Of a DNA stretch of 64,000 nt, positions 2,415-34,986 are shown piece after piece (positions within the stretch are counted from its first letter, which is position 1; the number at the start of each line of letters is the position of its first letter). The notes below the pieces were generated by a model, which worked only from the letters and a program-made list of their open reading frames with translations, did not search any database and had not been told where the DNA came from. The translations under genes and the position numbers were made by a program. Source of the DNA: an uncultured virus (IMG/VR IMGVR_UViG_3300018414_000001). Lineage: Duplodnaviria > Heunggongvirae > Uroviricota > Caudoviricetes. The stretch lies in the IMG/VR virus record IMGVR_UViG_3300018414_000001; one strand, given 5' to 3'.

Positions 2415-4700
2415 ATCATAGCCCGTGCATATAACGCTTCGACCGCCGCCAATATCTGCTGGTGTTCCGTTTCCGTCAGGCTGGCGGTATGCGCGATCCC
2501 GCTCTTGCCGACCCAGGTCCGATCATAGGCCGCGAAGGAGATATCGCTCAAGCGGCGGCCGCACTCGCAGAAGCCGTTAATGCCGGAGAAGGTGTGGCCC
2601 GCTATTGTTGACACACGATCGCTTTCCCCGAGATATCATGCACCCAGCGGCCGTTGCGCCATATGGGCTTGTAGCCCGAGGCGCACCAGGGGCAGCTCAC
2701 GCGGCCAATCTCAACGCAACAGGAGGCGGAACACGCGGCGATGCGGCCAATAGCCGTACGATCCGCCATGCTGGCAGGCGCAATGTCACGATAATTCCCA
2801 TCACGCCTCAACCTCCTTCATCATCGTCGCTCGGGCTTCATCAATCCACTTGATCCGATCCCGGACCCCAGCCTCCGGTGCAAGACGCGCGATGGCGTCC
2901 TCTCGGGCGATGCGGAGCAGCATATCAAGCGCAGCGCGTTCGGCCGAGGTCATCGCCATATCCACCAAGCCAGCGCCACCAGCCCAACAATCGCAACCAC
3001 CAGCCCGGCCGTGACCCACCGTTCCGTTGGAGTGAGCGGGGATGACGGAACCCAATCGTCGTCGCCAAAGGGGTCGCTCATAATTGCTCACTCACGAAGC
3101 GCGCCAACACCGCTTCAACCTCGGCCGGATCAAACCATCCGCCCTCGCCGTCCGAGTGCAGCCTCAGCGTCCCGTCCATCTCGTGCCACATCTCGAACCG
3201 CCCAATTCGGAACGGATCATATGGGCCGCGCGCTTCACCGTCGAGGACTCTGGCGGCGCGTTGTATGGCTCGGATTGGATTCGCGGGACTGAGCGACGAG
3301 ACAATCAGGGCCATCCGACCCTCCGTTGATCGCCTTTCCGCTCCAGCGACCCCGACGCCATCGGGGGGGCGGTCGGGTCTTTTGGCGCCTTTTTGAGAGC
3401 TTCCTGTACAACGACCCGATCATCCTTCGTGACCGACCCAGCCAGGATATCCCGCGCCACCTGTTGCGCCCGATCATGGATATCGGCGACCGAGTCGCCA
3501 TCGTTGACGCGCATCAGGGCGTTTCGCAGATCGGCATACTGGCCGCGTAGGACGGCAAGGCCATGGTTGAGGGTGGCCTGGGCTTCGCGCGCCGCCGTTC
3601 GGACCTCGACAACGGAGGGCGTGTACCAGGCGTGCTCAAATATCTGATCCGCCATCCGCGCGAACGCTTGGTCGGGAACTTCCCGCCGCGCGATCTCGCC
3701 ATAGGTGCAATCAGCAAACATGGCCTCAAGAAAAACAGCCAAATCATGCCTGTCTTCGTCGGTGGGGCTGAACTGATGTGGTTCCAGCGCCCGCATCGCG
3801 CGGTAAACGTCTTCCACGTTTAAAGGATCGCCGGTCAGGCGCCCACCCGCCTCGATCATTTCCGGCGTCACCGGGATTTCAGGCCCAACCCAAACAGACG
3901 GCGGCCGGAAAACGCCATCCGGGTCAGGCGACACCGACATATTCCCTGTCCACCCCTCAAGCCCCGCGCCATCCGGCTCCGTCAGGCGCGCGGCGGCGAG
4001 GTCGGAGGGCGAAACAGGATTCCCGGCGTAGATTTCCGCATACGCCTTCGCGCGATTGCGCTTCGCTTCGGGCGGGACGGGCGTAGGGCCAACACACATT
4101 CCGGGAACTCCCCGACAATCAGGACAGTCTGGATCACCGCACAAAAACGGCATAATCCGGCAATGGTCCATCACCCAACCTCCCCAACAACATATCCTCG
4201 GCTTCGCATACACCGCGCAAACTCCCCGCGGGCCTCCGTTCTCTCCGTCTGCGCGACAACCGCGATCCCAACCACCGGCAGAAAGAACCCCGCCGCGAAC
4301 GCACGCGCCTGTGCCTCTGGCCGATTCGCCCAGGTCCGGGCAAAATCCTTGCACTCCAAAATGTCCATCCGCCGGGCATCGCCCGAACCGGACACCGAGG
4401 ATGCCAATTGGTAGGAACCGCAGGAAGTAAGGAAAAACAGGGGAATGAGCCACCGCATCACGCATCCCCTCCAAAATCCCAGCCATCGCAGATCAACGGG
4501 CCGGGCGCCGAGTTCCTGATCAGCAAGTGAATCAAATGGTTCGGGCAAAACAACTCCCTGATATCCCGCAAATCGCGCTGGCGGATGTACTCCCGTGTTA
4601 TGCCGGACAACCGGCGGGTGGTTTCGGGATCACGCGGCGGAACCGGCGTGGTATCGACCGAAAAATATCCCCGATGGCCGGTCATGCCGCGATCCTCCAT
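2411..4700 (-). other. Run of small overlapping hypothetical phage genes, including a lipoprotein-like ORF (MRWLIPLFFLTSC) ending at 4171
   Basis: Chain of start/stop-overlapping ORFs ending at 2411, 2602, 2801, 3078, 3305, 4171 and 4458. Confidence 0.6.
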
Positions 4701-5206
4701 TCCCCACGCCTGACCCGCTTCCGCCCCGTCCGGTCACTCACCCCGAACGCGAGACTCGCCAACCGGATCGACATGAACTCCCCCCGATCCGTAACCACCG
4801 GACGCGCCCGGGGATGCCGATTCCCCAGCCGTAAATGATCCCCCGAAGGCCGGACCCTCTCCTTGATAACCCTGACAACCGGCGCACGAACAACCGGCGC
4901 GGCATACACATTGCCATCCTCATACCCAGAGACATCATCATGCCGCGCCATCCGATACCCGCCACGGCGAAACTTCGCCCGGTCGAGATCGTGTAATTCC
5001 CGCTTCCACCACTGATCCCACTGAAATACGGAGAACCGGAACGGAATACCCCTTGACCCGGCCTGCTCGCGATGACGGTCCCACGAAGCAAACACATACT
5101 CAGCGATCCCGTATGTGGCCTGCTCGTTGCGGGCGCGCTCATACTCCGGGGTTGAGGGGCGGCCACGAAGAGTCACGTCACTTCTCCCCACGCAAACGAG
5201 TGTCAC
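4682..5206 (-). CDS. His-Me finger/homing-endonuclease-like protein with C-terminal NUMOD1-like HTH
   Basis: RGIPFRFS..W..WW...MARHDDVSGYEDGNVY and HPRARPVVTDRGEFMSIRLAS..FGVS motifs. True start is probably internal. Confidence 0.5.
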   Translation of the reverse strand: MTLVCVGRSDVTLRGRPSTPEYERARNEQATYGIAEYVFASWDRHREQAGSRGIPFRFSVFQWDQWWKRELHDLDRAKFRRGGYRMARHDDVSGYEDGNVYAAPVVRAPVVRVIKERVRPSGDHLRLGNRHPRARPVVTDRGEFMSIRLASLAFGVSDRTGRKRVRRGEWRIAA

Positions 5207-5498
5207 GCTTCGGAAAATCAGTCATCGCCGGGAGGTTGAGGGACGCTATGGCCTTCGGGCTCGCCGAGACGGGCGCGCGCGGGACGTACACAGTAGAACC
5301 TCTACCACGCGAGAACGGGGGCGGAGGGACAGGTGTGGTAGCAACCGCGTCCAATGGTTCATCTGGCCGACGCATTTTAAGCCGGATCAACTCAGCCACC
5401 GATACGCTCATGGCCGTGGCGCGACGGCGCCAATCAGCCAGCTCCTCAATCGGAACGCGCATCTCGAATTTCTCAGACTTCGATGAAGTGCCCGCCAT
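5178..5498 (-). CDS. Ribbon-helix-helix (RHH) DNA-binding protein
   Basis: KFEMRVPIEELADWRRRA..MSVSVAELIRL. GGAGG RBS and three palindromes upstream. Confidence 0.6.
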   Translation of the reverse strand: MAGTSSKSEKFEMRVPIEELADWRRRATAMSVSVAELIRLKMRRPDEPLDAVATTPVPPPPFSRGRGSTVYVPRAPVSASPKAIASLNLPAMTDFPKRDTRLRGEK

Positions 5499-5514
5499 GC
5501 CGATCCCTCCTTAA

Positions 5515-5568
5515 GTGTCAGGACACTATATACAGGTGTGGGGACACCCCAGCAAGGTGTCAGGACAC
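5515..5568. promoter_or_regulatory. Three GTGTC-NN-GACAC operator-like palindromes at 21-bp spacing
   Basis: GTGTCAGGACAC at 5515 and 5557; GTGTGGGGACAC at 5536. Confidence 0.7.
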
Positions 5569-5573
5569 CAACA

Positions 5574-5783
5574 TCACATCCTCAAGCCGATGTCGCGCTC
5601 CAACGACACGACCCGGACGGTCAACGCGGCGATCTCAGCATCCTTCGCCGCCGCACCCTCCACACTGGCGAAGATCAGACCCGACACCGACGTTTTTCCC
5701 TCGGCCGCCCGAGCCTGCCACCGCGCCCAGGTCTCGTCATCCAGCCTGAACGTGCGAACCTTCAACGCCATCAGAGCACTCAT
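5574..5783 (-). CDS. RHH DNA-binding protein with coiled-coil tail
   Basis: KVRTFRLDDETWARWQARAAEGKTSVSGLI. Confidence 0.65.
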   Translation of the reverse strand: MSALMALKVRTFRLDDETWARWQARAAEGKTSVSGLIFASVEGAAAKDAEIAALTVRVVSLERDIGLRM

Positions 5784-5797
5784 TCATCAACGATGCC

Positions 5798-5830
5798 GGT
5801 ATATACCACCCGACCAGCCCGGTATATACC
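5798..5830. promoter_or_regulatory. Two perfect GGTATATACC palindromes
   Basis: At 5798-5807 and 5821-5830, directly upstream of the RHH gene 5574..5783. Confidence 0.7.
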
Positions 5831-5837
5831 GCCAAGG

Positions 5838-6047
5838 TTAAATCTTATCCACGTCCATCTCATCCATGACCCTGTTCGCCCGCTCCCCAGATAACCTCCG
5901 CAACTCCCATTCCGCCACACTTCCAAGCCCACGCTCAACCACGATCTCAAGCTGAGCCTGACCGGACCGGCGTTCGGCCTTCGCGATAACGACAATCTTC
6001 GCCCATAGCTTCGGAGGTAACCGACAGGGGACAGTTTTTCTTTCCAT
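5838..6047 (-). CDS. Arc-like RHH protein
   Basis: KTVPCRLPPKLWAKIVVIAKAERRSGQAQLEIVVERGL. Confidence 0.65.
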   Translation of the reverse strand: MERKTVPCRLPPKLWAKIVVIAKAERRSGQAQLEIVVERGLGSVAEWELRRLSGERANRVMDEMDVDKI

Positions 6048-24826: not shown

Positions 24827-25537
24827 TTAGTAGACGTGTTCGGCATGGCTTGGCTCCTTGATCTCCTGTTGAACGCTTCGTGTCGGCACGCGGTTCGGCG
24901 GTTTGAAGGGAGGGACGCCAAAGACAGCCCCGAAGTTCCCGCCTTCGTCGGCGTCCCACTGTTCCTTGGCGAGTTTGGCGGACCAGCCTCTGGGGCGATG
25001 GCCACCATGCTTTTTGATCCACCCGAGGATATCGGCCTCGGTGTACTGTTCATCGTCCGCGCTGTAACTGACGACCTCCAACAGGTCCGTCATCGGCACG
25101 CCACGAACGAACAGGTCAATCGCATACCGCTCCGTCGTGAAATCGTCGGCACCCTGTAATACGCTGGTGAGATATTTCTTCTCCAACGCCAAGGTGTAAA
25201 TCTGGACCGCGAGTTCCGCCTCCCGTAAATTCATGCGGAACAATTCGGCGATGTCGCTGTTATCCTCGATAGTGGGTTCGCGCCGTTCAAGTTCTCTGAC
25301 GGTGACTCGCATCCTCTGCGGCTGTGTGTCGGGCACGGGGAGATATCTGACGGCGACACGAATAAGCGCCCTCGCTTGCAGCAAGCGGAGTTGGTCGGCA
25401 GCCTCTTTGTCATCCCATGTGAAATAGTCATGCAGAGGGGAGTTTGGGTTTCTCGCGTCCTCAAGAACGGCCTCCGGGCGCAATTCCCCGTGGGTGCGCC
25501 GGATCAGTTCAAGATGCTCGCGTTGAATTGGGGTCAT
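24827..25537 (-). CDS. Conserved phage protein, candidate partner of the RAMP-like gene
   Basis: LELIRRTHGELRPEAVLEDARNPNSPLHDYFTWDDKEAA..RLLQARALIR motif. Start MTPIQ at 25537. Confidence 0.7.
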   Translation of the reverse strand: MTPIQREHLELIRRTHGELRPEAVLEDARNPNSPLHDYFTWDDKEAADQLRLLQARALIRVAVRYLPVPDTQPQRMRVTVRELERREPTIEDNSDIAELFRMNLREAELAVQIYTLALEKKYLTSVLQGADDFTTERYAIDLFVRGVPMTDLLEVVSYSADDEQYTEADILGWIKKHGGHRPRGWSAKLAKEQWDADEGGNFGAVFGVPPFKPPNRVPTRSVQQEIKEPSHAEHVY

Positions 25538-26010
25538 TCGCTCGCGCCTCCGCAACGGATACAAAGTCTGTTGCCCGGGCCGTCACTCATGAACAGTTTC
25601 TCGCAGCGTAAGCACTTTCGCTGCGCGCGACGGTCGGCAGAACTGATGGTTGGCCGATTGGTCTGAGCCATATAAGGAGTAGGAGGATTAACCGGAGCGA
25701 CCGCAGCCGGTTTGAATATCTGCGCGGTTCTTTTTCTCATTGGGCATAAGGAAGCCACGGGATCAGAGACTCGCCTAAGAGGCATCGGCCGAGGAGCCAG
25801 TTTCATTCTGCTGCGCGCGCAATAGACCATGGCGATATACGGAAACTCCATTATCTTCATGATTTCTGAGCCGACGACACCGTCGTTCCAAAGCTTGGCG
25901 AACTGCGCCTTCTTTTCTTTTGACCATGGCGGCCCGTAGCGGCGGTTATGGCCAGCACCCATCGGACAACCGAAGCTGCTTAGCATCGGTTCTGCTTTCC
26001 GTTTTGTCAT
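25534..26010 (-). CDS. GcrA-like N-terminal HTH plus C-terminal Zn ribbon
   Basis: WSKEKKAQFAKLWNDG..SEI; RKCLRCEKLFMSDGPGNRLCIRC. Confidence 0.55.
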   Translation of the reverse strand: MTKRKAEPMLSSFGCPMGAGHNRRYGPPWSKEKKAQFAKLWNDGVVGSEIMKIMEFPYIAMVYCARSRMKLAPRPMPLRRVSDPVASLCPMRKRTAQIFKPAAVAPVNPPTPYMAQTNRPTISSADRRAQRKCLRCEKLFMSDGPGNRLCIRCGGASE

Positions 26011-26204
26011 GTCGCCACCATAACCGGATGCTCGTCTTTAGGATCGCGCACCGTAGTCGGGTAACGCCGGTCCAGATATCGGCAGCGCATACATAGCCGG
26101 AGGTTCTGACTGCCGAACCGATGACCACTAAGGTCACATTCGTCTATAGGTGCTGCCGTCGAGGGCACGATTGTAAATTGCAACATACTGCGCCTCACGA
26201 TCAT
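26007..26204 (-). CDS. 65 aa hypothetical protein downstream of the array
   Basis: GAGGAG RBS then ATG at 26204 (MIVRRSMLQF...). ATGA overlap with the next gene. Confidence 0.55.
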   Translation of the reverse strand: MIVRRSMLQFTIVPSTAAPIDECDLSGHRFGSQNLRLCMRCRYLDRRYPTTVRDPKDEHPVMVAT

Positions 26205-26220
26205 TTTGCTCCTCGGGTTT

Positions 26221-26245
26221 GGGGTGTCGTTATTACCGACACCCC
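26221..26245 (-). terminator. 9-bp hairpin closing the array (no U-tract on the minus strand; terminator or processing stem)
   Basis: GGGGTGTCG-GTAATAA-CGACACCCC. Confidence 0.55.
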
Positions 26246-26896
26246 TCCCCGCGTTGCGTTGCCTGTCCAGTCCCGGCCACGCGAAGCTTTGCCTAGCCGT
26301 TCCAAGCCTGCGAAGCCTCTCCCGGCGATTTCGTACCGAGCCGGGCCTCGCCATACCAAGCCACTCCTGCGTAGCCCTGCCGTGCCAGTCGCGGCCACTC
26401 GTGACCGCGCCGGGCCTAGCCTGGCCCATCCAAGCCTGCGCTGCCGATCCGTGCGACGCCATTCCAATCGACGCCGCGCCGAGCCTGCGTCGCCATGCCC
26501 GGCTATTCCGTGCCAAGCCTTGCTTGTCGCGGCCTCGCCATTCCTGCGATGCCCCGCCACGCGTAGCCGTTCGTCGTCTCGCGACGCCTCTCGACGCTTG
26601 CGAAGCGTTGCGTGGCCGTGCCAACCCACACCAATCCGCGTCGTTCCTTGCCTAGCCTGCGGTGCCACGCCGCGCCTGTCGTGACCGTTCCTGTCCTCGC
26701 ACCGCCTTGCCTGCGGAGCCAAGCCAAACGTCGCCTCGCCGCTCGCCGCCTTGCCGTTCCTGCGCTGCCCAACCAATCCGGGCCAATCGCGGCGCAGCCG
26801 TACCGTCCGTGCCATTCCTGCGTTTCCAACCCTATCCGCGCGTCTCCTGGCCCCGCCTCGGCGTGCCGTGCCAGCCCTGACCACACCTGCCATGCC
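26244..26896 (-). ncRNA. Array of 11 guide-like units of (GGN/CGN)NN pentamers separated by CGCA (VIPR-type RNA array)
   Basis: Separators seen on + as cctgcg/cttgcg at 26307, 26366, 26435, 26484, 26543, 26597, 26656, 26710, 26759, 26817, plus cctgcc at 26886. Spacings are 59,69,49,59,54,59,54,49,58,69, i.e. 5n+4 with one 1-nt exception. Confidence 0.85.
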
Positions 26897-26916
26897 AAAC
26901 AAAGGGGAGCGAACCC

Positions 26917-27678
26917 TCAAGCCGCATCGGCCTCTCTAACCAGTTGATCCGCATGTTGCCGTTGTGATCCTGATGAAATCGACCGGGAAGCCAATCCGTT
27001 GTCCAACTGCGTTTCGCCCTCTTGGACGATATCGAATGTGCCGAAGCCGATGCCCGCCGACATTTTGGAATCCGGCCTTCCTTCCCCAATTCCCCCTTGC
27101 GCTCCAACCCGGGCCAAGAGGTTGATGACATCGGCGGGGGAGAATTGATCAGCGTCGAACTTCACCCGAAGGGTCGCGCCCCATCCGCCAGCGGGCCACT
27201 GCGGCCGCACACGAAGGTCAACCACTCCTGTCGCGTTTCGCGCGGCCATCACGGATCGTTCGGGCCTGCCGCCGGTAATCCGAACCAACGGCGTCCCATC
27301 GTCCGCGTCCCACCCGTCCGCGATAATGAACAGACTGAGTTTCGCCAACGTCATCTTGAACCCCACCAATCGGCAGGCCGAGATCATGCCGTTGCGAAAA
27401 GCCCCCGCCGCGATGCCATCCCATCCTTCGCGGGACAGATGACGCGCACCGTTAAACACGGCGTCGAAATCTTTAGGCTCGCGCTTCCGCCCCTTGTTGC
27501 TCTGGGACCCGGCCTGTTGGGTAGTCGCGATCTGCTCCAACGCCTTCGTTGAGAACTTGTTGATCATCAGGGGAGCCGTTCCGACGATATCGACAACCAA
27601 TTCCCTTAAATTCGGTGGACTGATCAAGACCTGTGTCTGCATCCCCACCGAGGCTTTAGTCGCTGCTCTTGCCATCAT
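26917..27678 (-). CDS. RAMP/Cas7-like RNA-binding protein (Vipr-like effector)
   Basis: VDIVGTAPLMI first strand, GIAAGAFRNGMISAC helix and C-terminal Gly-rich loop GGIGEGRP..GIGFGTF. AAGGAG RBS. The array begins about 20 nt after the stop. Confidence 0.8.
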   Translation of the reverse strand: MMARAATKASVGMQTQVLISPPNLRELVVDIVGTAPLMINKFSTKALEQIATTQQAGSQSNKGRKREPKDFDAVFNGARHLSREGWDGIAAGAFRNGMISACRLVGFKMTLAKLSLFIIADGWDADDGTPLVRITGGRPERSVMAARNATGVVDLRVRPQWPAGGWGATLRVKFDADQFSPADVINLLARVGAQGGIGEGRPDSKMSAGIGFGTFDIVQEGETQLDNGLASRSISSGSQRQHADQLVREADAA

Positions 27679-27732: not shown

Positions 27733-27941
27733 CCTTTAATTTCCCTTTGCTGCTTTTTTTCCGCCATCAATGCGAGAACAACTCTGGTCTGTTTGGGAAC
27801 CTTCTTCATTCCCCGATAGCGTCTCGCCTGCCTGGGGCTGATTTCAAGCAGCGCGGCAACTCTCCTGTCCATTTCCAGGACGGGGAGAGTGATCGAAATT
27901 CCATTGGCCCTCAAAAGAGTGGCATACGCCTGGTCTATCAA
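27729..27941 (-). CDS. Small HTH regulator
   Basis: RRVAALLEISPRQARRYRG..KVPKQTRVVLAL. Confidence 0.6.
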   Translation of the reverse strand: MIDQAYATLLRANGISITLPVLEMDRRVAALLEISPRQARRYRGMKKVPKQTRVVLALMAEKKQQREIKG

Positions 27942-28984
27942 TGGAACTCCGTCCCGCCCTTTCGGGTCAGATATTCTGGAGATATGTATTTCACGATGAC
28001 ACGCCCGATCCGGGGGTCTGTCCGCTCTTTTTGTGATCTCACGACGACTCCTTCTCGCATATGCGCCATATTACCGGATATGGTCGCACCTGAAGCCAGC
28101 CGCTCGACGATGCCGCCAACAAGGGGGCCGCTGTAGAGAATCGGAACCGACGGCGCGATCTCTCCGACAACCCGATTGAATTCCTCCCGGTTAAGCCACC
28201 GGCCGCGCCCCGGAGTGCCCAGGTAAATATCGAAGGCCGAGAAAGTCGGTTCTGCCTGCCCATACGACAGGTCTTGAACCGTGCCGCCGTATATCTCCCC
28301 GAAAACAGTAGCAGACCGGCCATTGAAGGCCCCTCTTAACCGGCGTCTCATTCCAAATGCTGCTTTGAGGTAAAGGTTCTCAGGATTGGGTGCCTTCAGG
28401 ACGTGTCCTGTCTCGCCCAGGCTCTTGCTGTAAACAAGGGTGTCGCCGTCCGGAAGCCGAGGGTCGTTCAAGCCGGGAAGGTAGCCTATGGCGCACATGG
28501 TCCCGTGCAGCTTTTCGGTGATCTCGACTGGCTCTCCGTTCCTGACGACATGAGGCCAGCGCCGGGCGCTTCGTATATCGTAAGCGACTGTCGAACCAGG
28601 AAGAAAGATGCACTCCCCCCTCCATGGGGTGGGGATGGGTTGTTCGTATTTGACCACCCCAAGGGAAACTGAAACATCCTCTCCCACCTTCCCGCGGGGG
28701 ATAGGGCCGATCAGAATACCCTCACTGAACGCCCCCCGGAGCCTGTAGGGCCGCACCCGATTCTTCTTCTCCCCGAATAGCTTGGCCTGCCCTTTGAGGG
28801 ACGCCGCAAGATCACCGGGTAGCACGGAGTCAGGCGGCAGGTAGATGGCGTTATCGGAATTCCCGTAACGTCCTTTGGGCACAATCACATCGATATCGAA
28901 AACCTTGGCGAGTTCAATCTCGTCGGCCCCTGGGATGGGACTAATCGACTCAATCCGAACCACGGGGCAAGAAAAATCGCTCAC
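27938..28984 (-). CDS. ATP-dependent RNA ligase, DRB0094/Rnl2-like family
   Basis: N-terminal PIPGADEIELA, motif I TEKLHGT, VFGEIYG, FDI, REGVVV, K.ISPEYL. Confidence 0.9.
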   Translation of the reverse strand: MSDFSCPVVRIESISPIPGADEIELAKVFDIDVIVPKGRYGNSDNAIYLPPDSVLPGDLAASLKGQAKLFGEKKNRVRPYRLRGAFSEGILIGPIPRGKVGEDVSVSLGVVKYEQPIPTPWRGECIFLPGSTVAYDIRSARRWPHVVRNGEPVEITEKLHGTMCAIGYLPGLNDPRLPDGDTLVYSKSLGETGHVLKAPNPENLYLKAAFGMRRRLRGAFNGRSATVFGEIYGGTVQDLSYGQAEPTFSAFDIYLGTPGRGRWLNREEFNRVVGEIAPSVPILYSGPLVGGIVERLASGATISGNMAHMREGVVVRSQKERTDPRIGRVIVKYISPEYLTRKGGTEFH

Positions 28985-29817
28985 CGTTCATTTTCCCCCT
29001 TGACTGTGCTGGCCGTTATGTCCATGTTGCGGGTGTCCAGCAGACTCCCCGCTGGACTGACAGACGGAGAACATGATGCCATGGGCAACTTTGGCTGCGA
29101 TGCAATCCTGGCAAGCGGCGCCCTCTCGGGCGCCGCAGCCATGTCAGGGGTATATTTCCTCCGCAACTCGCTAACCGTTTCATCGTAGATTTCGACCAAA
29201 CAATCAGAGCGCAGCCTCGCGGCATTGATCACCGGAGAGGCAAGCCGCATAAGAGTTTCCGCTAAAACGTACGGCGTGAACCTCAAATTCGATATTATCT
29301 TGTTCCGCAAGCGATCAGCGATGCGCTGAAAGCCAGCATCGCTGACAATTATCTCCCCCGCCGCTCGGCGCAATGACCCAAATAGAACCGGCGATAATGG
29401 TCCGCTACCGTCGCCATGAACTGCATATTGATGACGACAGGAGCCGCAGCGATAGGCTCGTCCCTCGATTACTCGGACATCGTCCGAACCACACCACCCG
29501 CAGAGCCGAACCGTAAGCGGTAGACGCCATTGGGCCAGAAGCCTAGCGCCGTCCGCTGTGTTGCATTTATGGCACGCCGCCGCGCAGGTCTCCCAACAGA
29601 CCCTGCCCCCCGCACTCGCTGGGATGACATGCTCAATCGTGCAGAGTGTATCGCCTCGCCGCCAACGGTTCATCACCACGCCGCAGTAGCAACAGCGCCA
29701 GTTTTGAGCCTCGGCAAGCCGGTCCCGCAGAAGCATGGAGGGGGCAAGGGCGGAATGGTTCTGATCAACCTCCATGAACGCATAAGCCGCCTTATGGTCC
29801 CATCGGTCGATAATCAT
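28981..29817 (-). CDS. HNH endonuclease domain protein
   Basis: EAQNWRCCYCG..TIEHVIPASAGG..AACHKCN. Confidence 0.8.
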   Translation of the reverse strand: MIIDRWDHKAAYAFMEVDQNHSALAPSMLLRDRLAEAQNWRCCYCGVVMNRWRRGDTLCTIEHVIPASAGGRVCWETCAAACHKCNTADGARLLAQWRLPLTVRLCGWCGSDDVRVIEGRAYRCGSCRHQYAVHGDGSGPLSPVLFGSLRRAAGEIIVSDAGFQRIADRLRNKIISNLRFTPYVLAETLMRLASPVINAARLRSDCLVEIYDETVSELRRKYTPDMAAAPERAPLARIASQPKLPMASCSPSVSPAGSLLDTRNMDITASTVKGENER

Positions 29818-30139: not shown

Positions 30140-30295
30140 TCATCGTGACGACAGTTCATGAAGCATGATTTTCCGATACCTCTCCACGGTGCCTTTGCTG
30201 ACACCAAGATCGGCCGCGATCTTCCGAAGGCTCTCTCCGGCCTGCAACCGCTCGATCATCATCTCAATGATGGCCTCCGGCAGAAAGTTTCCCAT
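30140..30295 (-). CDS. 51 aa HTH protein
   Basis: Manual translation MGNFLPEAIIEMIERLQAGESLRKIAADLGVSKGTVERYRKIMLHELSSR. Confidence 0.7.
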   Translation of the reverse strand: MGNFLPEAIIEMMIERLQAGESLRKIAADLGVSKGTVERYRKIMLHELSSR

Positions 30296-31674
30296 CACCA
30301 CTCCAGGGCGTTCAGGACACCAGCGGGAAGCGTTGAACCATAAGAGTCGGTGTCATCGTTGTCCCACTTCGGAGCATCCAAAGAACCCACCATGTAAGGG
30401 TTGTCCTGGCTCTTGCGGTAGGATCGCACAAAGGCACGCAACACATCCGGCGACCCCTTGAGGTCGTCCAGAGAGGTTTGTCCTTCCAGGATCGCCAGCA
30501 GCACGATCTGGCAAACATCGGCCCGCATAAAGTCTGGGTAAGCGCGAGAGACCAGTCCCGAGACCTCTATCGTCAGGGCCGCGCCATTTGCATCCGCGAA
30601 CCTGGGAAGCGTCGGCAGATATGGATAGGCGGATAGGATTTTCGGTTGCGCCGGAACCGATATCCTCGGCTTGGAAAAGAGCGGGCGCCAACTCGCCGGA
30701 ATTGTGACGAAAGGCACATTGTCTCTTGCGTACCATGCGATGGAAGTTGCCGACCGGCCCAAGGCCGCGGCTGCCTGATCTGGCGTCGCACCCGCCTCAG
30801 CCAAGGTCGTAAGATCATGTCTCTCCTGCGGCGTCCACCAGCCGCGAGTGGACCAGAGATACCCATAGGGGTAACGAGGCGCAGCAAGCAAATCGGCCAC
30901 ACTACGATCTATGATGGGAGCGGCTTCCGCTGTTTCTTTACGACCCTGCCAGGACTGGCGCATCTTCACGGAAAACGCGCCGTTTTTACAAGCTTTGCAG
31001 ACGGTCGAAGTCAGGCCCCATTCTCTAGCCGCGCCGCTGCGGAATTGGAAATCCGCGGAAGGTTTCTCCTGGCCGCAGTCGCGGCAAATCTTAGTAGGCA
31101 ACAGCGCGTCCAGTTTGGCGCGCGGCGCGTCAGGAGCCGCCTTCCCCCCTTGCCAATAACCGGTGAAATGGCTCTTTCCTTCCAGATTTCCGCAAAGCAT
31201 TTCCTGCGCTTTGCGGAACAGGATGTATGCCGTCTTGAAATTGCACCCGATGTCTTCCGACAACCGGCTGATCGTCACGTCGCCCTTATTGCGCTGGACG
31301 GCTGACAGGAGAAGCAAGATCGTTCTGATCGGAACCTTCAAACCGGCGAACACCGTCCCGCTCGTCAGACTGAAACAAGGATGGCGACCCTTGCATTTCC
31401 ATCGACTGGCGCCGTTTGCCTCGCGGCAACTGTAAACTTTCGTGCTGCTGCACGTTGGGCATGTCGGTTTCCCGTCCGTTCCGGGCCATCGCAAATGACG
31501 CCACATTGCTTCGGCCTCTTCGTCTGTGAGGCCCTTTATGGTGCCCTCGTCAGGCAAGAGCGGATAAGACGGAGCCGCTTTGGCGCTAACCGCCTGAGGC
31601 GGCAAAAGTTTCTCCCACTCCGAGGTTTTCCAGGAGTTCAGAAACTCATCAAGGTATGTGGTTGTTCCGTCCAT
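30295..31674 (-). CDS. IS1595-transposase-derived protein (Zn ribbon + HTH, DDE core absent) fused to additional domains
   Basis: LTDEEAEA..LRWP..GKPTCPTC..FSLTSGTVF..LSEDIGCNFKTAY, then almost directly GYWQ. No E-x-D-E/G, TDE or N-x-x-E catalytic motifs seen. Confidence 0.75.
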   Translation of the reverse strand: MDGTTTYLDEFLNSWKTSEWEKLLPPQAVSAKAAPSYPLLPDEGTIKGLTDEEAEAMWRHLRWPGTDGKPTCPTCSSTKVYSCREANGASRWKCKGRHPCFSLTSGTVFAGLKVPIRTILLLLSAVQRNKGDVTISRLSEDIGCNFKTAYILFRKAQEMLCGNLEGKSHFTGYWQGGKAAPDAPRAKLDALLPTKICRDCGQEKPSADFQFRSGAAREWGLTSTVCKACKNGAFSVKMRQSWQGRKETAEAAPIIDRSVADLLAAPRYPYGYLWSTRGWWTPQERHDLTTLAEAGATPDQAAAALGRSATSIAWYARDNVPFVTIPASWRPLFSKPRISVPAQPKILSAYPYLPTLPRFADANGAALTIEVSGLVSRAYPDFMRADVCQIVLLAILEGQTSLDDLKGSPDVLRAFVRSYRKSQDNPYMVGSLDAPKWDNDDTDSYGSTLPAGVLNALEW

Positions 31675-33213: not shown

Positions 33214-33555
33214 TCAATCGGCGGCACGACGCCACCCTTCCGGCACATACTCCCGCTGATTCCGGACTTCATATATCCCTGGTTCCAGCAAGAGTGAGTC
33301 GTGCGTGTCAAAGTCACGAAGATGCACAACCTCGGATGGTTCCGCGACTTCCAGCCACGCGATGAATGTGTTGGTATCGTGGATGAACCGGTCAGCGGCA
33401 CGCGACTCGATAACGTGGTGATGACCAGTTTCCGAATGTGCAAGGATGTGGTGGCCATTCTGAGGGGCCGATTTCTTCGCGCCATCTGGCACGATAGCGA
33501 TGCGGCGGATCATCAGATCGCCCTGGAAGGACGGGCGGCTGGTTACGATTTTCAT
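33214..33555 (-). CDS. Conserved phage protein, usual neighbour of DUF6745
   Basis: QGDL, ILAHSETGHHH, H...LEPGIYEVRNQREY..WRRAAD. Confidence 0.75.
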   Translation of the reverse strand: MKIVTSRPSFQGDLMIRRIAIVPDGAKKSAPQNGHHILAHSETGHHHVIESRAADRFIHDTNTFIAWLEVAEPSEVVHLRDFDTHDSLLLEPGIYEVRNQREYVPEGWRRAAD

Positions 33556-34787
33556 GTCCTGTGTTCCTTGAGTTTGAGTAAGTCCGGCGGAATATCGTAC
33601 GTCCAGCAGTTTCCCTCCAACGCCGTCTTAACCGTTGGAGGAACTGGTATGGCAAACGAGCGGCCCGTACCACATTGAACGCGAAGAAACCGCTCCTTCG
33701 GCGCGTCCGGCAAGCTGACCTCAATCAATTCCCCGATCTGAGGATCGTCATCGCGATCGATTGTCGTGCCCTTCAGATCATCCAGGATACGCGTCCAGCC
33801 CACGAGCTCGCAGGCCGCTCGTCGCTGTTCGACGTTCGTTTGCCCAAGGGCGATCTGGGCGGTCAGGCCGGTTTTGTTCATAATCCATTCAGAAGGCACC
33901 GCGACCCCGTGCCAGTGCCACAACGACCATCCGTCCTGATAAAGCATGGACGGACCTGTTTCATTATGCAATCGCCCTTGGTCATCACGCAAAATGGATT
34001 TAGGTCGATCCGAGATCGCCAGCACATCTTCGTGCCACCATGTCCAACCGCAACTTTGAATCAGGTCTTCGTCTATTTTGAAACGTTCGAGAACGGGATT
34101 GTCCCAATCACACACATCACGGAAGAACGAGATATACGCTCCCCATGAAGCATACAAAGCACTAGTGTAACTATTATTCAAGATGCTTCCGACCTGGCTC
34201 TCGACCTGGCTCTCGACCTGGCTCCTGACCTGGCTCTCGACCTGGCTCTCGACCTGGCCCTCGACTTGGCTCCCGACCTGGCTCCTGACCTGGCTCTCGA
34301 CCTGGCTCCCGACCTGGCTCCAGACCTGGCTCTCGATCTGGCTCCCGACTTGGCTCCTGACCTGGCTCCAGACCTGGCTCTCGACCTGGCTCCCGACTTG
34401 GCTCCTGACCTGGCTCCAGACCTGGCTCTCGACATGGCTCTCGACCTGGCTCCCGACCTGGCTCCAGACCTGGCTCCCGACCTGGCTCCAGACCTGGCTC
34501 TCGACCTGGCTCCCGACCTGGCTCCTGACCTGGCTCTTAAGCCCTGACATTTCACGGAGCATACTCCAGGCAGTAACGCCCCCCAAACACGCCGCCAGCG
34601 GACTGCCCATCCGCAACACGATCTTCGGCTTTTTCAGACCGGCCAGTTCGTAAGCCTGCAACGCCGCCGAGGTCGCGAGATCAAAATCTGCCGGTTCAGT
34701 GGATAAACCGATCTTGATCCATTTTTCCGACCATTCGGCGAAACGTGCAGATTGTTCAGGCGTTAATTTTGTGATCTTGTCAGCCAT
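33552..34787 (-). CDS. DUF6745-like protein with internal SQVx repeat
   Basis: W..IGLSTEPAD, CGWTWW, DDQGRLHNETGP..Y.DGW..WHGV.VP, NVEQRR. Start MADKITK at 34787. Confidence 0.8.
   Translation of the reverse strand: MADKITKLTPEQSARFAEWSEKWIKIGLSTEPADFDLATSAALQAYELAGLKKPKIVLRMGSPLAACLGGVTAWSMLREMSGLKSQVRSQVGSQVESQVWSQVGSQVWSQVGSQVESHVESQVWSQVRSQVGSQVESQVWSQVRSQVGSQIESQVWSQVGSQVESQVRSQVGSQVEGQVESQVESQVRSQVESQVESQVGSILNNSYTSALYASWGAYISFFRDVCDWDNPVLERFKIDEDLIQSCGWTWWHEDVLAISDRPKSILRDDQGRLHNETGPSMLYQDGWSLWHWHGVAVPSEWIMNKTGLTAQIALGQTNVEQRRAACELVGWTRILDDLKGTTIDRDDDPQIGELIEVSLPDAPKERFLRVQCGTGRSFAIPVPPTVKTALEGNCWTYDIPPDLLKLKEHRT
34188..34535 (-). repeat. 29 x 12-nt tandem repeat encoding S-Q-V-[R/G/E/W]
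   Basis: AGC CAG GTC + variable codon; seen on + as gacctggct-NNN. Confidence 0.95.
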
Positions 34788-34986
34788 GTTTCCGCTCCTT
34801 CTTCCGCCGCCCTGCCGTCGTAGCCATGATCTGTGCCGTTTCGGCACGCAACGCGGCCATTTCGGCACGCAACGCGAACCGAATCGCTTCACGGAAATTC
34901 AGATCGAGAAATTCGGCGATCTCACCGATAAGATCACGATCTCCCTCAGTCAGGTTCATCGCGAAGCGTGCGGATGGCTTTTTCAT
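34780..34986 (-). CDS. RHH-like small regulator
   Basis: ARFAMNLTEGDRDLIGEIAEFLDLNFREAIRFALR. TTGACA-N18-TAATAT ends 7 nt before the ATG. Confidence 0.6.
   Translation of the reverse strand: MKKPSARFAMNLTEGDRDLIGEIAEFLDLNFREAIRFALRAEMAALRAETAQIMATTAGRRKKERKHG

Follow-up and report, generated by a model that had tools for sequence, protein, structure and literature searches.

A staggered VIPR system is carried by a virus whose DNA was found in freshwater metagenomes. Within the 64,000-nucleotide stretch that we analyzed (the window), an array of guide units lies on the minus strand beside the gene of a stand-alone RAMP protein. We consider it probable that this is the system of a phage, itself probably alphaproteobacterial, whose guides are directed against IS1 and IS1595 elements and in which the last dinucleotide (NN) of a guide is a soft slot. 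The VIPR gene-silencing system was described in 2026, and its both-strand, double-stranded DNA (dsDNA) and relaxed-triplet grammar is already published. The new elements here are the insertion sequence (IS) transposase targets and a last NN that is array-specific in many relatives.

A staggered array and its RAMP protein

The vrRNA array (26255..26896, minus strand, delimited by sequence parse) lies directly 3' of the open reading frame (ORF) 26917-27678 and consists of 11 units built from pentamers, each a triplet plus an NN. Units hold 9 to 13 pentamers (49 to 69 nt), inside the VIPR range of 9 to 16 for a guide, have no tails and are parted by 4-nt joints, which read GGCA at 26891 and CGCA at all others (26822, 26764, 26715, 26661, 26602, 26548, 26489, 26440, 26371, 26312 and 26258). 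The register thus moves by one base at every unit boundary, and the array has no fixed repeat. We count units U1 to U11 from the vipr-proximal end, a numbering that reproduces the strand calls of a preliminary description whose parse we had not seen. One pentamer of U2 is short by 1 nt; this is probably real, because a contig from another study spans 26771-27015, the short pentamer included, without difference. For the U5/U6 joint, CGCA at 26612 was rejected in favor of CGCA at 26602-26599, which gives U5 a 22/22 match on two natural elements. A 9-bp hairpin, read from the sequence, follows the last joint (26221..26245, minus strand), and GC-rich inverted repeats also trail the arrays of the related loci L363 and L364. 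Folding of the array RNA gave z = -1.3, and a search for a promoter consensus found none. The only RNA-library contig in a 3-kb stretch falls inside the array (26513-26774, 262 nt, metatranscriptome depth 2.1, without strand, ends or DNA control). No array variants were seen in the four sequencing runs, two of which barely cover the array.

ORF 26917-27678 (minus strand) was identified as vipr, encoding a 253-aa RAMP protein, by profile comparison with the PDB and by fold comparison. A profile of 64 relatives found SUSP1 Vipr (36pp, E 7.8e-5) as its sole PDB match, and the ORF itself matched nothing in Pfam or NCBIfam. The Vipr model (pLDDT 84.6) has its best fold matches in type III Csm and type VII CRISPR complex chains. 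The locus combines the features by which VIPRs are recognized, namely, a stand-alone RAMP protein with a G-loop, a pentamer array, a 1-nt skip, targets on both strands and no self-targeting. Array and ORF therefore form a staggered VIPR system. Gly195 of this Vipr aligns to SUSP1 Cys173, in the purine-excluding Y3 pocket. Among 120 close homologues, 111 of them readable at this site, Gly occurs in 8, all from the window's subclade. A C-terminal extension of about 30 aa (26917-27000, minus strand) is absent from the seven closest relatives.

The triplets are more relaxed than GGY, as the preliminary description had pointed out: GGY accounts for only 66 of 118 (GGC alone for 57), against a median share of 72% over 157 loci. 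All the variants it had named occur (GGA 21, CGC 9, CGA 9, AGC 4 and GAC 2), together with GGG (3) and four singletons. A purine stands at triplet position 3 in 34 of 118 cases; this share is 29% in the window and in L363 alike, compared with a median of 11.5% in 157 loci. As a cause of these purine-rich triplets, Gly195 was rejected and kept only as a lead, given that the window and L363 rank only 16th and 17th and that Val-type loci rank higher. GGA and GGT are commoner before pyrimidine-starting NNs (GGC 60-61% versus 78-81%), which perhaps avoids self-pairing. There was no signal of triplets copying the skipped target base (20/82 at position 3), although this is a weak test because the matches are to relatives.

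A candidate vap gene (24827..25564, minus strand; phrog_15946) shares 39% identity across 228 aa with the ORF that comes immediately after the array of L363. It is thus kept after both arrays, and it matched no named vap family. About 650 bp with small ORFs (25565-26220) separates the window array from this gene, whereas the L363 vap directly follows its array; at L363, the vap-like ORF (3905-5929) is a fusion whose long C-terminal part matches GP88. RNA ligase and HNH genes (27938-29817, minus strand) immediately precede vipr in the same orientation and might conceivably have a part in guide processing. Farther along, the N-terminal part of ORF 30295-31674 (minus strand) resembles an IS1595 zinc-ribbon/HTH region and is 35% identical across 124 aa to one of the type B transposases targeted. 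This ORF has no DDE-domain match and is not matched by the array guides; possibly it is a fragment that became domesticated in a phage with guides against that very family. A 12-bp tandem repeat of 29 copies (34185-34536) lies within ORF 33552-34892 (DUF6745). The phage carries a GcrA gene, DNA methylases, and Erf and YqaJ recombination genes, which suggests an alphaproteobacterial host. The nearest virus record (G001, about 25% complete) has neither the locus nor an integrase. Of seven metagenome runs listed, four may be the source of the window DNA.

Transposase genes as guide targets

Candidate targets were collected as 312 loci, through gapped patterns and genome regions, and as 390 proteins, through whole-protein similarity; one fetch pattern lacked stringency, so that its matches were mostly due to chance. 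Targets were found for 9 of the 11 units, and all are IS1- or IS1595-family transposase genes. All nine lie in codon register, and the base that is skipped falls at the wobble position. Example target proteins scored above the cut-off of NF033547 (IS1595 transposase); IS1-like examples scored above that of PF03400 and reached 70.8 bits with NF033558, under its cut-off of 100. Within IS1595, we label two subgroups type A and type B, names that are our own.

Six guides (all units are encoded on the minus strand) are sense to their targets. U1 (26823..26887, 13 NNs) matches an IS1-family transposase at VQLTTDGHKAYLN with 25/26 letters in L328, where its last NN fits and position 9 misfits. U3 (26716..26760, 9 NNs; best 16/18) and U5 (26603..26657, 11 NNs; 22/22 in L289 and L305) match IS1595 type B at TNGAEEFFS and YKTAFVLTHKL, respectively. 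U6 (26549..26598, 10 NNs; 18/20) falls on the first catalytic motif of IS1595 type A (VEVDETYVG), and U7 (26490..26544, 11 NNs) matches the IS1 family at IERQNLTMRME with 22/22 in L236. U11 (26259..26308, 10 NNs; 16/20) is a weak match to an IS1 C-terminal motif (YNFVRxHK), in which the first two NNs misfit and the last fits. Three guides are antisense: U2 (26765..26818, 11 pentamers) to IS1595 type B at QNGKRQVVVV, with 18 of 20 scored letters; U9 (26372..26436, 13 NNs) to the IS1595 type B C-terminus (VSRxWAGYWQ), with 22/26 at best and misfits at the first, penultimate and last NNs; and U10 (26313..26367, 11 NNs) to an IS1 N-terminal region (SRxxxxSINT), with 19/22.

A 1-nt skip gave fewer mismatches than skips of 0, 2 or 3 for U1, U2, U3, U5, U6, U7, U9 and U10. 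We also compared each guide with 60 shuffles, leaving out loci fetched with the unit's own pattern. No shuffle equalled the real guide for U1, U2, U7, U9 or U10; 1 of 60 did so for U5, 2 for U3, 3 for U6 and 18 for U11. The last of these draws support from a run of eight NNs on a conserved motif (profile p ~0.007). The targets of U4 (26662..26711, 10 NNs; best IS1595 site with 6 mismatches in 20) and U8 (26441..26485, 9 NNs; perhaps antisense to IS1595 type A, though only at chance level) were not above shuffles, 60/60 and 59/60 of which do equally well. No self-target was found in the 64-kb window, where the best sites range from 4 mismatches in 18 to 10 mismatches in 26.

The claim that both target strands are used, made earlier with U1, U3, U5, U6, U7 and U11 as sense and U2 and U9 as antisense guides, holds for every one of these units and extends to U10, which had been left unassigned. 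The antisense call tentatively made for U8 falls to the shuffles. DNA is the likely substrate, because a sense guide cannot pair with mRNA. The dsDNA targeting that had been proposed on these grounds agrees with the strand data and with published biochemistry (10.64898/2026.04.26.720920; 10.64898/2026.04.26.720927); it is not new, and for this protein it is a prediction.

The matches are to relatives of the source elements, not to the sources themselves. No long terminal inverted repeat pairs were evident around the five target genes checked, and some targets may therefore be larger or atypical elements. Short inverted repeats occur near one end of the transposase genes in the L320, L300, L289 and L328 flanks. 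tRNA calls adjoin 6 of 60 IS1-type loci.

Different guides against the same families are found in two related arrays. L363, whose Vipr is 83% identical, has five units, all different from those of the window. Two of its guides are perfect, against IS1595 and IS1 (26/26 and 22/22). A further guide, its second, is antisense to IS1595 by profile only (best DNA site 7 mismatches in 26). Its fourth unit, in sense, resembles what we take to be the N-terminal motif of a serine resolvase, with no match in the collected loci. In L010 (Vipr 65%), one guide is antisense to IS1595 (17/18) and finds no counterpart in the incomplete L010 genome, and another is probably directed at IS1 (15/16). A genome flagged as unpublished (G246) supplies one of six equal sites for the latter guide and one row of the IS1 profile, and it is never the sole basis of a claim. 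When 703 units from 147 related loci were scored, a value of at least 17 came up only in L363, L010 and one 7-mer of L055; about 1 in 500 shuffled units also reaches it. Elsewhere, an L117 guide matches 20/20, last NN included, at what is presumably an ATPase-like Walker A motif. An L026 guide (19/20, the mismatch being inner) is antisense to the vipr gene of another phage, and an L099 guide (24/28) falls in a gene that we assume to be peptidase-like.

How gapped guides are acquired had been raised as a puzzle in view of the lack of an adjacent integrase-like gene. Indeed, a Pfam scan of 38 ORFs of the window, chiefly the longer ones, turned up no integrase, Cas1 or reverse transcriptase. In L363, a tyrosine integrase lies directly upstream of vipr, more likely the phage's own. 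The covered parts of the VIPR literature describe no acquisition mechanism. A comparison of related arrays for unit gain or loss, which had been proposed, yielded nothing to compare: L363 and the window have no unit in common, and the search for a sister array that shares units found none.

The last dinucleotide of a guide

The preliminary description held that the last NN often misfits, citing U1, U2, U6 and U7, and suggested that it belongs to the boundary signal. The misfit stands for U2 and U6, whose last NNs are seen at 0/24 and 0/60 homologous sites; for U6, 57 of the 60 loci have GG, encoding a nearly invariant Gly that also faces this NN in 79 of the 88 matches to the motif among diverse proteins. 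U10 (0/81) and U9 (1/42) are further misfits that had not been listed. For U1 and U7, the misfit was not confirmed. The U1 last NN fits in L328, is seen at 15% of 87 sites and is compatible with 86% of 120 proteins of one subfamily; that of U7 is seen at 3% of 91 sites, one of them the perfect L236 site, and in 0% of a 120-protein subfamily. The last NN occurs at 21/31 sites for U3, whose two best targets use the other Ser codon family, at 5/36 for U5 and at 55% of 89 for U11.

A per-position mismatch profile had been called for, and we compared last with inner positions. Over eight window guides (U11 dropped as weak), leave-one-out match was 0.27 at the last NN versus 0.81 at inner positions, and zero-match positions were 5/8 versus 10/72 (Fisher p 0.005). 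Over 12 guides, with the second L363 guide also dropped, the match was 0.35 versus 0.82. Positions never seen at any site were 3/9 last versus 4/80 inner (p 0.02). The deficit arises partly because last NNs land on variable codons (mean modal frequency of the target column 0.54 versus 0.80). When stratified by conservation it is borderline (4/12 versus 5/43, p 0.09; 1/2 versus 1/81, p 0.05). Note that several inner positions were preset by the target-fetch patterns; without pattern-fetched loci, the deficit persisted (10/13 versus 28/116), in a set that includes two weak guides. First NNs were not significantly worse (p 0.2). A terminal misfit confined to antisense guides was rejected when its initial signal (5/6 versus 1/9, p 0.011) weakened with more sites (4/6 versus 1/9, p 0.09).

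Related loci were parsed by script; we kept clean units of 7 to 15 pentamers between two joints and discarded near-duplicates, which left 668 units from 146 loci. Among their NNs, AA, AC or AT accounted for 56% at the last position, 41% at the first and 25% at inner positions (last 377/668 versus inner 913/3719, locus kinship being ignored). These three were commoner among last than among inner NNs in 84 of 102 loci with at least three units. A CGCA joint followed 130 of 394 A-starting last NNs, compared with 20 of 274 others. Furthermore, across 109 arrays (577 units), last NNs were identical in 27.5% of within-array pairs versus 13.2 ± 0.9% when permuted across arrays, and middle NNs in 8.8% versus 6.9%. 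The last NN thus often behaves as part of its array's repeat. The window array is an exception, with seven different last NNs over 11 units and 3 identical pairs of 55. A search of 506 related guides against the collected DNA gave 6 matches, versus 2 and 8 for shuffles; because this is no better than shuffles, a family-wide mismatch profile was not possible.

Three other readings compete with a soft last position. That the last NN forms part of a fixed signal for the boundary or for processing, without being read against the target, would explain the strong family bias, the array-specific last NN (0.275 versus 0.132) and its covariation with the first joint base, as well as L010, where AC ends 8 of the 15 units listed. 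As a family tendency, this part of the preliminary suggestion survives. As a fixed rule, and for the window, it does not: U1, U5, U7, U11, two L363 guides, L117 and L026 all have a natural target that agrees with their last NN, with full-length matches in L363 and L117, and last NNs vary within the window array. We regard this reading as unlikely. Slightly less so, in our judgment, is the opposite view that the last NN is an ordinary code position and that misfits reflect incomplete target sampling and guides that end past conserved motifs. The U1 and U7 misfits did vanish as more elements were fetched, the first L363 guide rose from 25/26 to 26/26 with more loci, and last columns are less conserved. 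However, the U6 last NN faces a nearly invariant Gly, first NNs sit at motif edges too without being significantly worse, and the family-wide composition bias is independent of targets.

It is very improbable that terminal pentamers are acquisition leftovers, carried along when recombination or duplication between joints creates a new guide. The array-specific last NN would fit such an origin, as would the identical first 12 nt of U9 and U11 (both misfit at the first NN), the identical last pentamers of U2 and U8, and the phage's Erf and YqaJ genes. Against it, adjacent units resemble each other no more than distant ones do (106/367 versus 367/1353), which leaves no tandem-duplication signature, and no sister array that shares units came to light. 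The best reading is that the last-NN misfit is a real tendency, overstated for the window array, and that the last NN is a soft position, less than a strict part of the code but not a fixed boundary signal either. One point counts against a soft slot: growth of an R-loop from the guide's 3' end, the direction given for SUSP1 in the covered text of 10.64898/2026.04.26.720927, would make a soft 3' end unexpected.

By analogy with SUSP1, Vipr subunits would coat the array RNA, one per pentamer, hiding the triplets and presenting the NNs, which would pair with dsDNA while skipping every third base. Nine wobble-aligned guides, on either strand, appear from their sequences to aim at conserved IS1 and IS1595 transposase motifs, and the transposase genes would presumably be silenced. 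As in published staggered arrays, the 4-nt joint may break the 5-nt register and so mark the end of one guide and the start of the next, possibly by cutting. The NN before the joint would be held by the last subunit, where it can, and often does, pair and where a mismatch may be tolerated. In many relatives, this NN may have drifted, or been selected, into an array-specific, A-starting joint context. Filament formation, dsDNA binding and silencing are inferred from SUSP1, and curbing transposition during infection or lysogeny is a conceivable benefit.

A soft last NN would be a measurable end rule for tail-less guides, with bearing on array cutting, guide design and guide acquisition. Furthermore, our findings add IS transposases as a target class absent from the VIPR texts searched, through 9 of 11 window guides and different guides in two related arrays, and with target families known, per-position tolerance is directly testable in the window array. 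More tentatively, and with somewhat less than even confidence, we propose that the Gly-pocket subclade and at least one neighbor form a phage-borne RNA-guided anti-transposon system that has been independently reprogrammed against IS1 and IS1595. Its guide-end slot would have a dual use, for optional pairing and as joint processing context, and a wider pocket would let triplets vary.

Comparison with known systems

The RAMP fold of Vipr is common to the Cas7/Csm3 backbones of Class 1 CRISPR systems. The window differs from these in having no CRISPR repeats, no cas1 among its scanned ORFs and non-contiguous pairing.

Type II VIPRs, known from SUSP1 and P. fulva, share a homologous G-loop region with the Vipr described here (PDB 36pp). 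In the covered text of two sources (10.64898/2026.04.26.720927; 10.64898/2026.10.15.759431), a type II guide also targets the catalytic core of a mobile-element enzyme, a satellite recombinase. The terms 'insertion sequence' and 'transposase' are absent from the covered text of the latter, as are 'seed' and 'mismatch' from that of the former. As far as the covered accounts go, SUSP1 guides are about 100 nt, each with a 3' pseudoknot tail, in contrast to the 49- to 69-nt, tail-less units of the window; the structured tail of about 40 nt that follows each type II guide has no counterpart in the 4 nt between guides here. Changing GGY to GGA is likewise reported to abolish SUSP1 silencing, whereas 34 of 118 window triplets have a purine at position 3, and Cys173 is described as part of a purine-excluding pocket (10.64898/2026.04.26.720927, covered text). 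VIPR-like arrays with triplets off GGY appear in the covered text of 10.64898/2026.10.21.760802. Those clusters have alternative dominant motifs, unlike the window, where GGC is still dominant (57/118) among mixed variants.

The closest system is the staggered-vrRNA VIPR (10.64898/2026.04.26.720920). Its reported targets are satellites, prophages, other VIPRs and viruses, and its text and supplement PDF name no IS targets. The published text gives neither a per-position mismatch profile nor a statement on terminal NNs. For its arrays, a relaxed repeat consensus and internal degeneracy are mentioned, and dsDNA targeting on both strands is documented with binding and reporter tests (10.64898/2026.04.26.720920). 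The window system has the same lone RAMP protein, with a candidate accessory gene, the same pentamer code and 1-nt skip, the same wobble alignment with targets on both strands and no self-targeting, and, judging from its 4-nt joints, apparently the same abutting guides with a 1-nt overlap.
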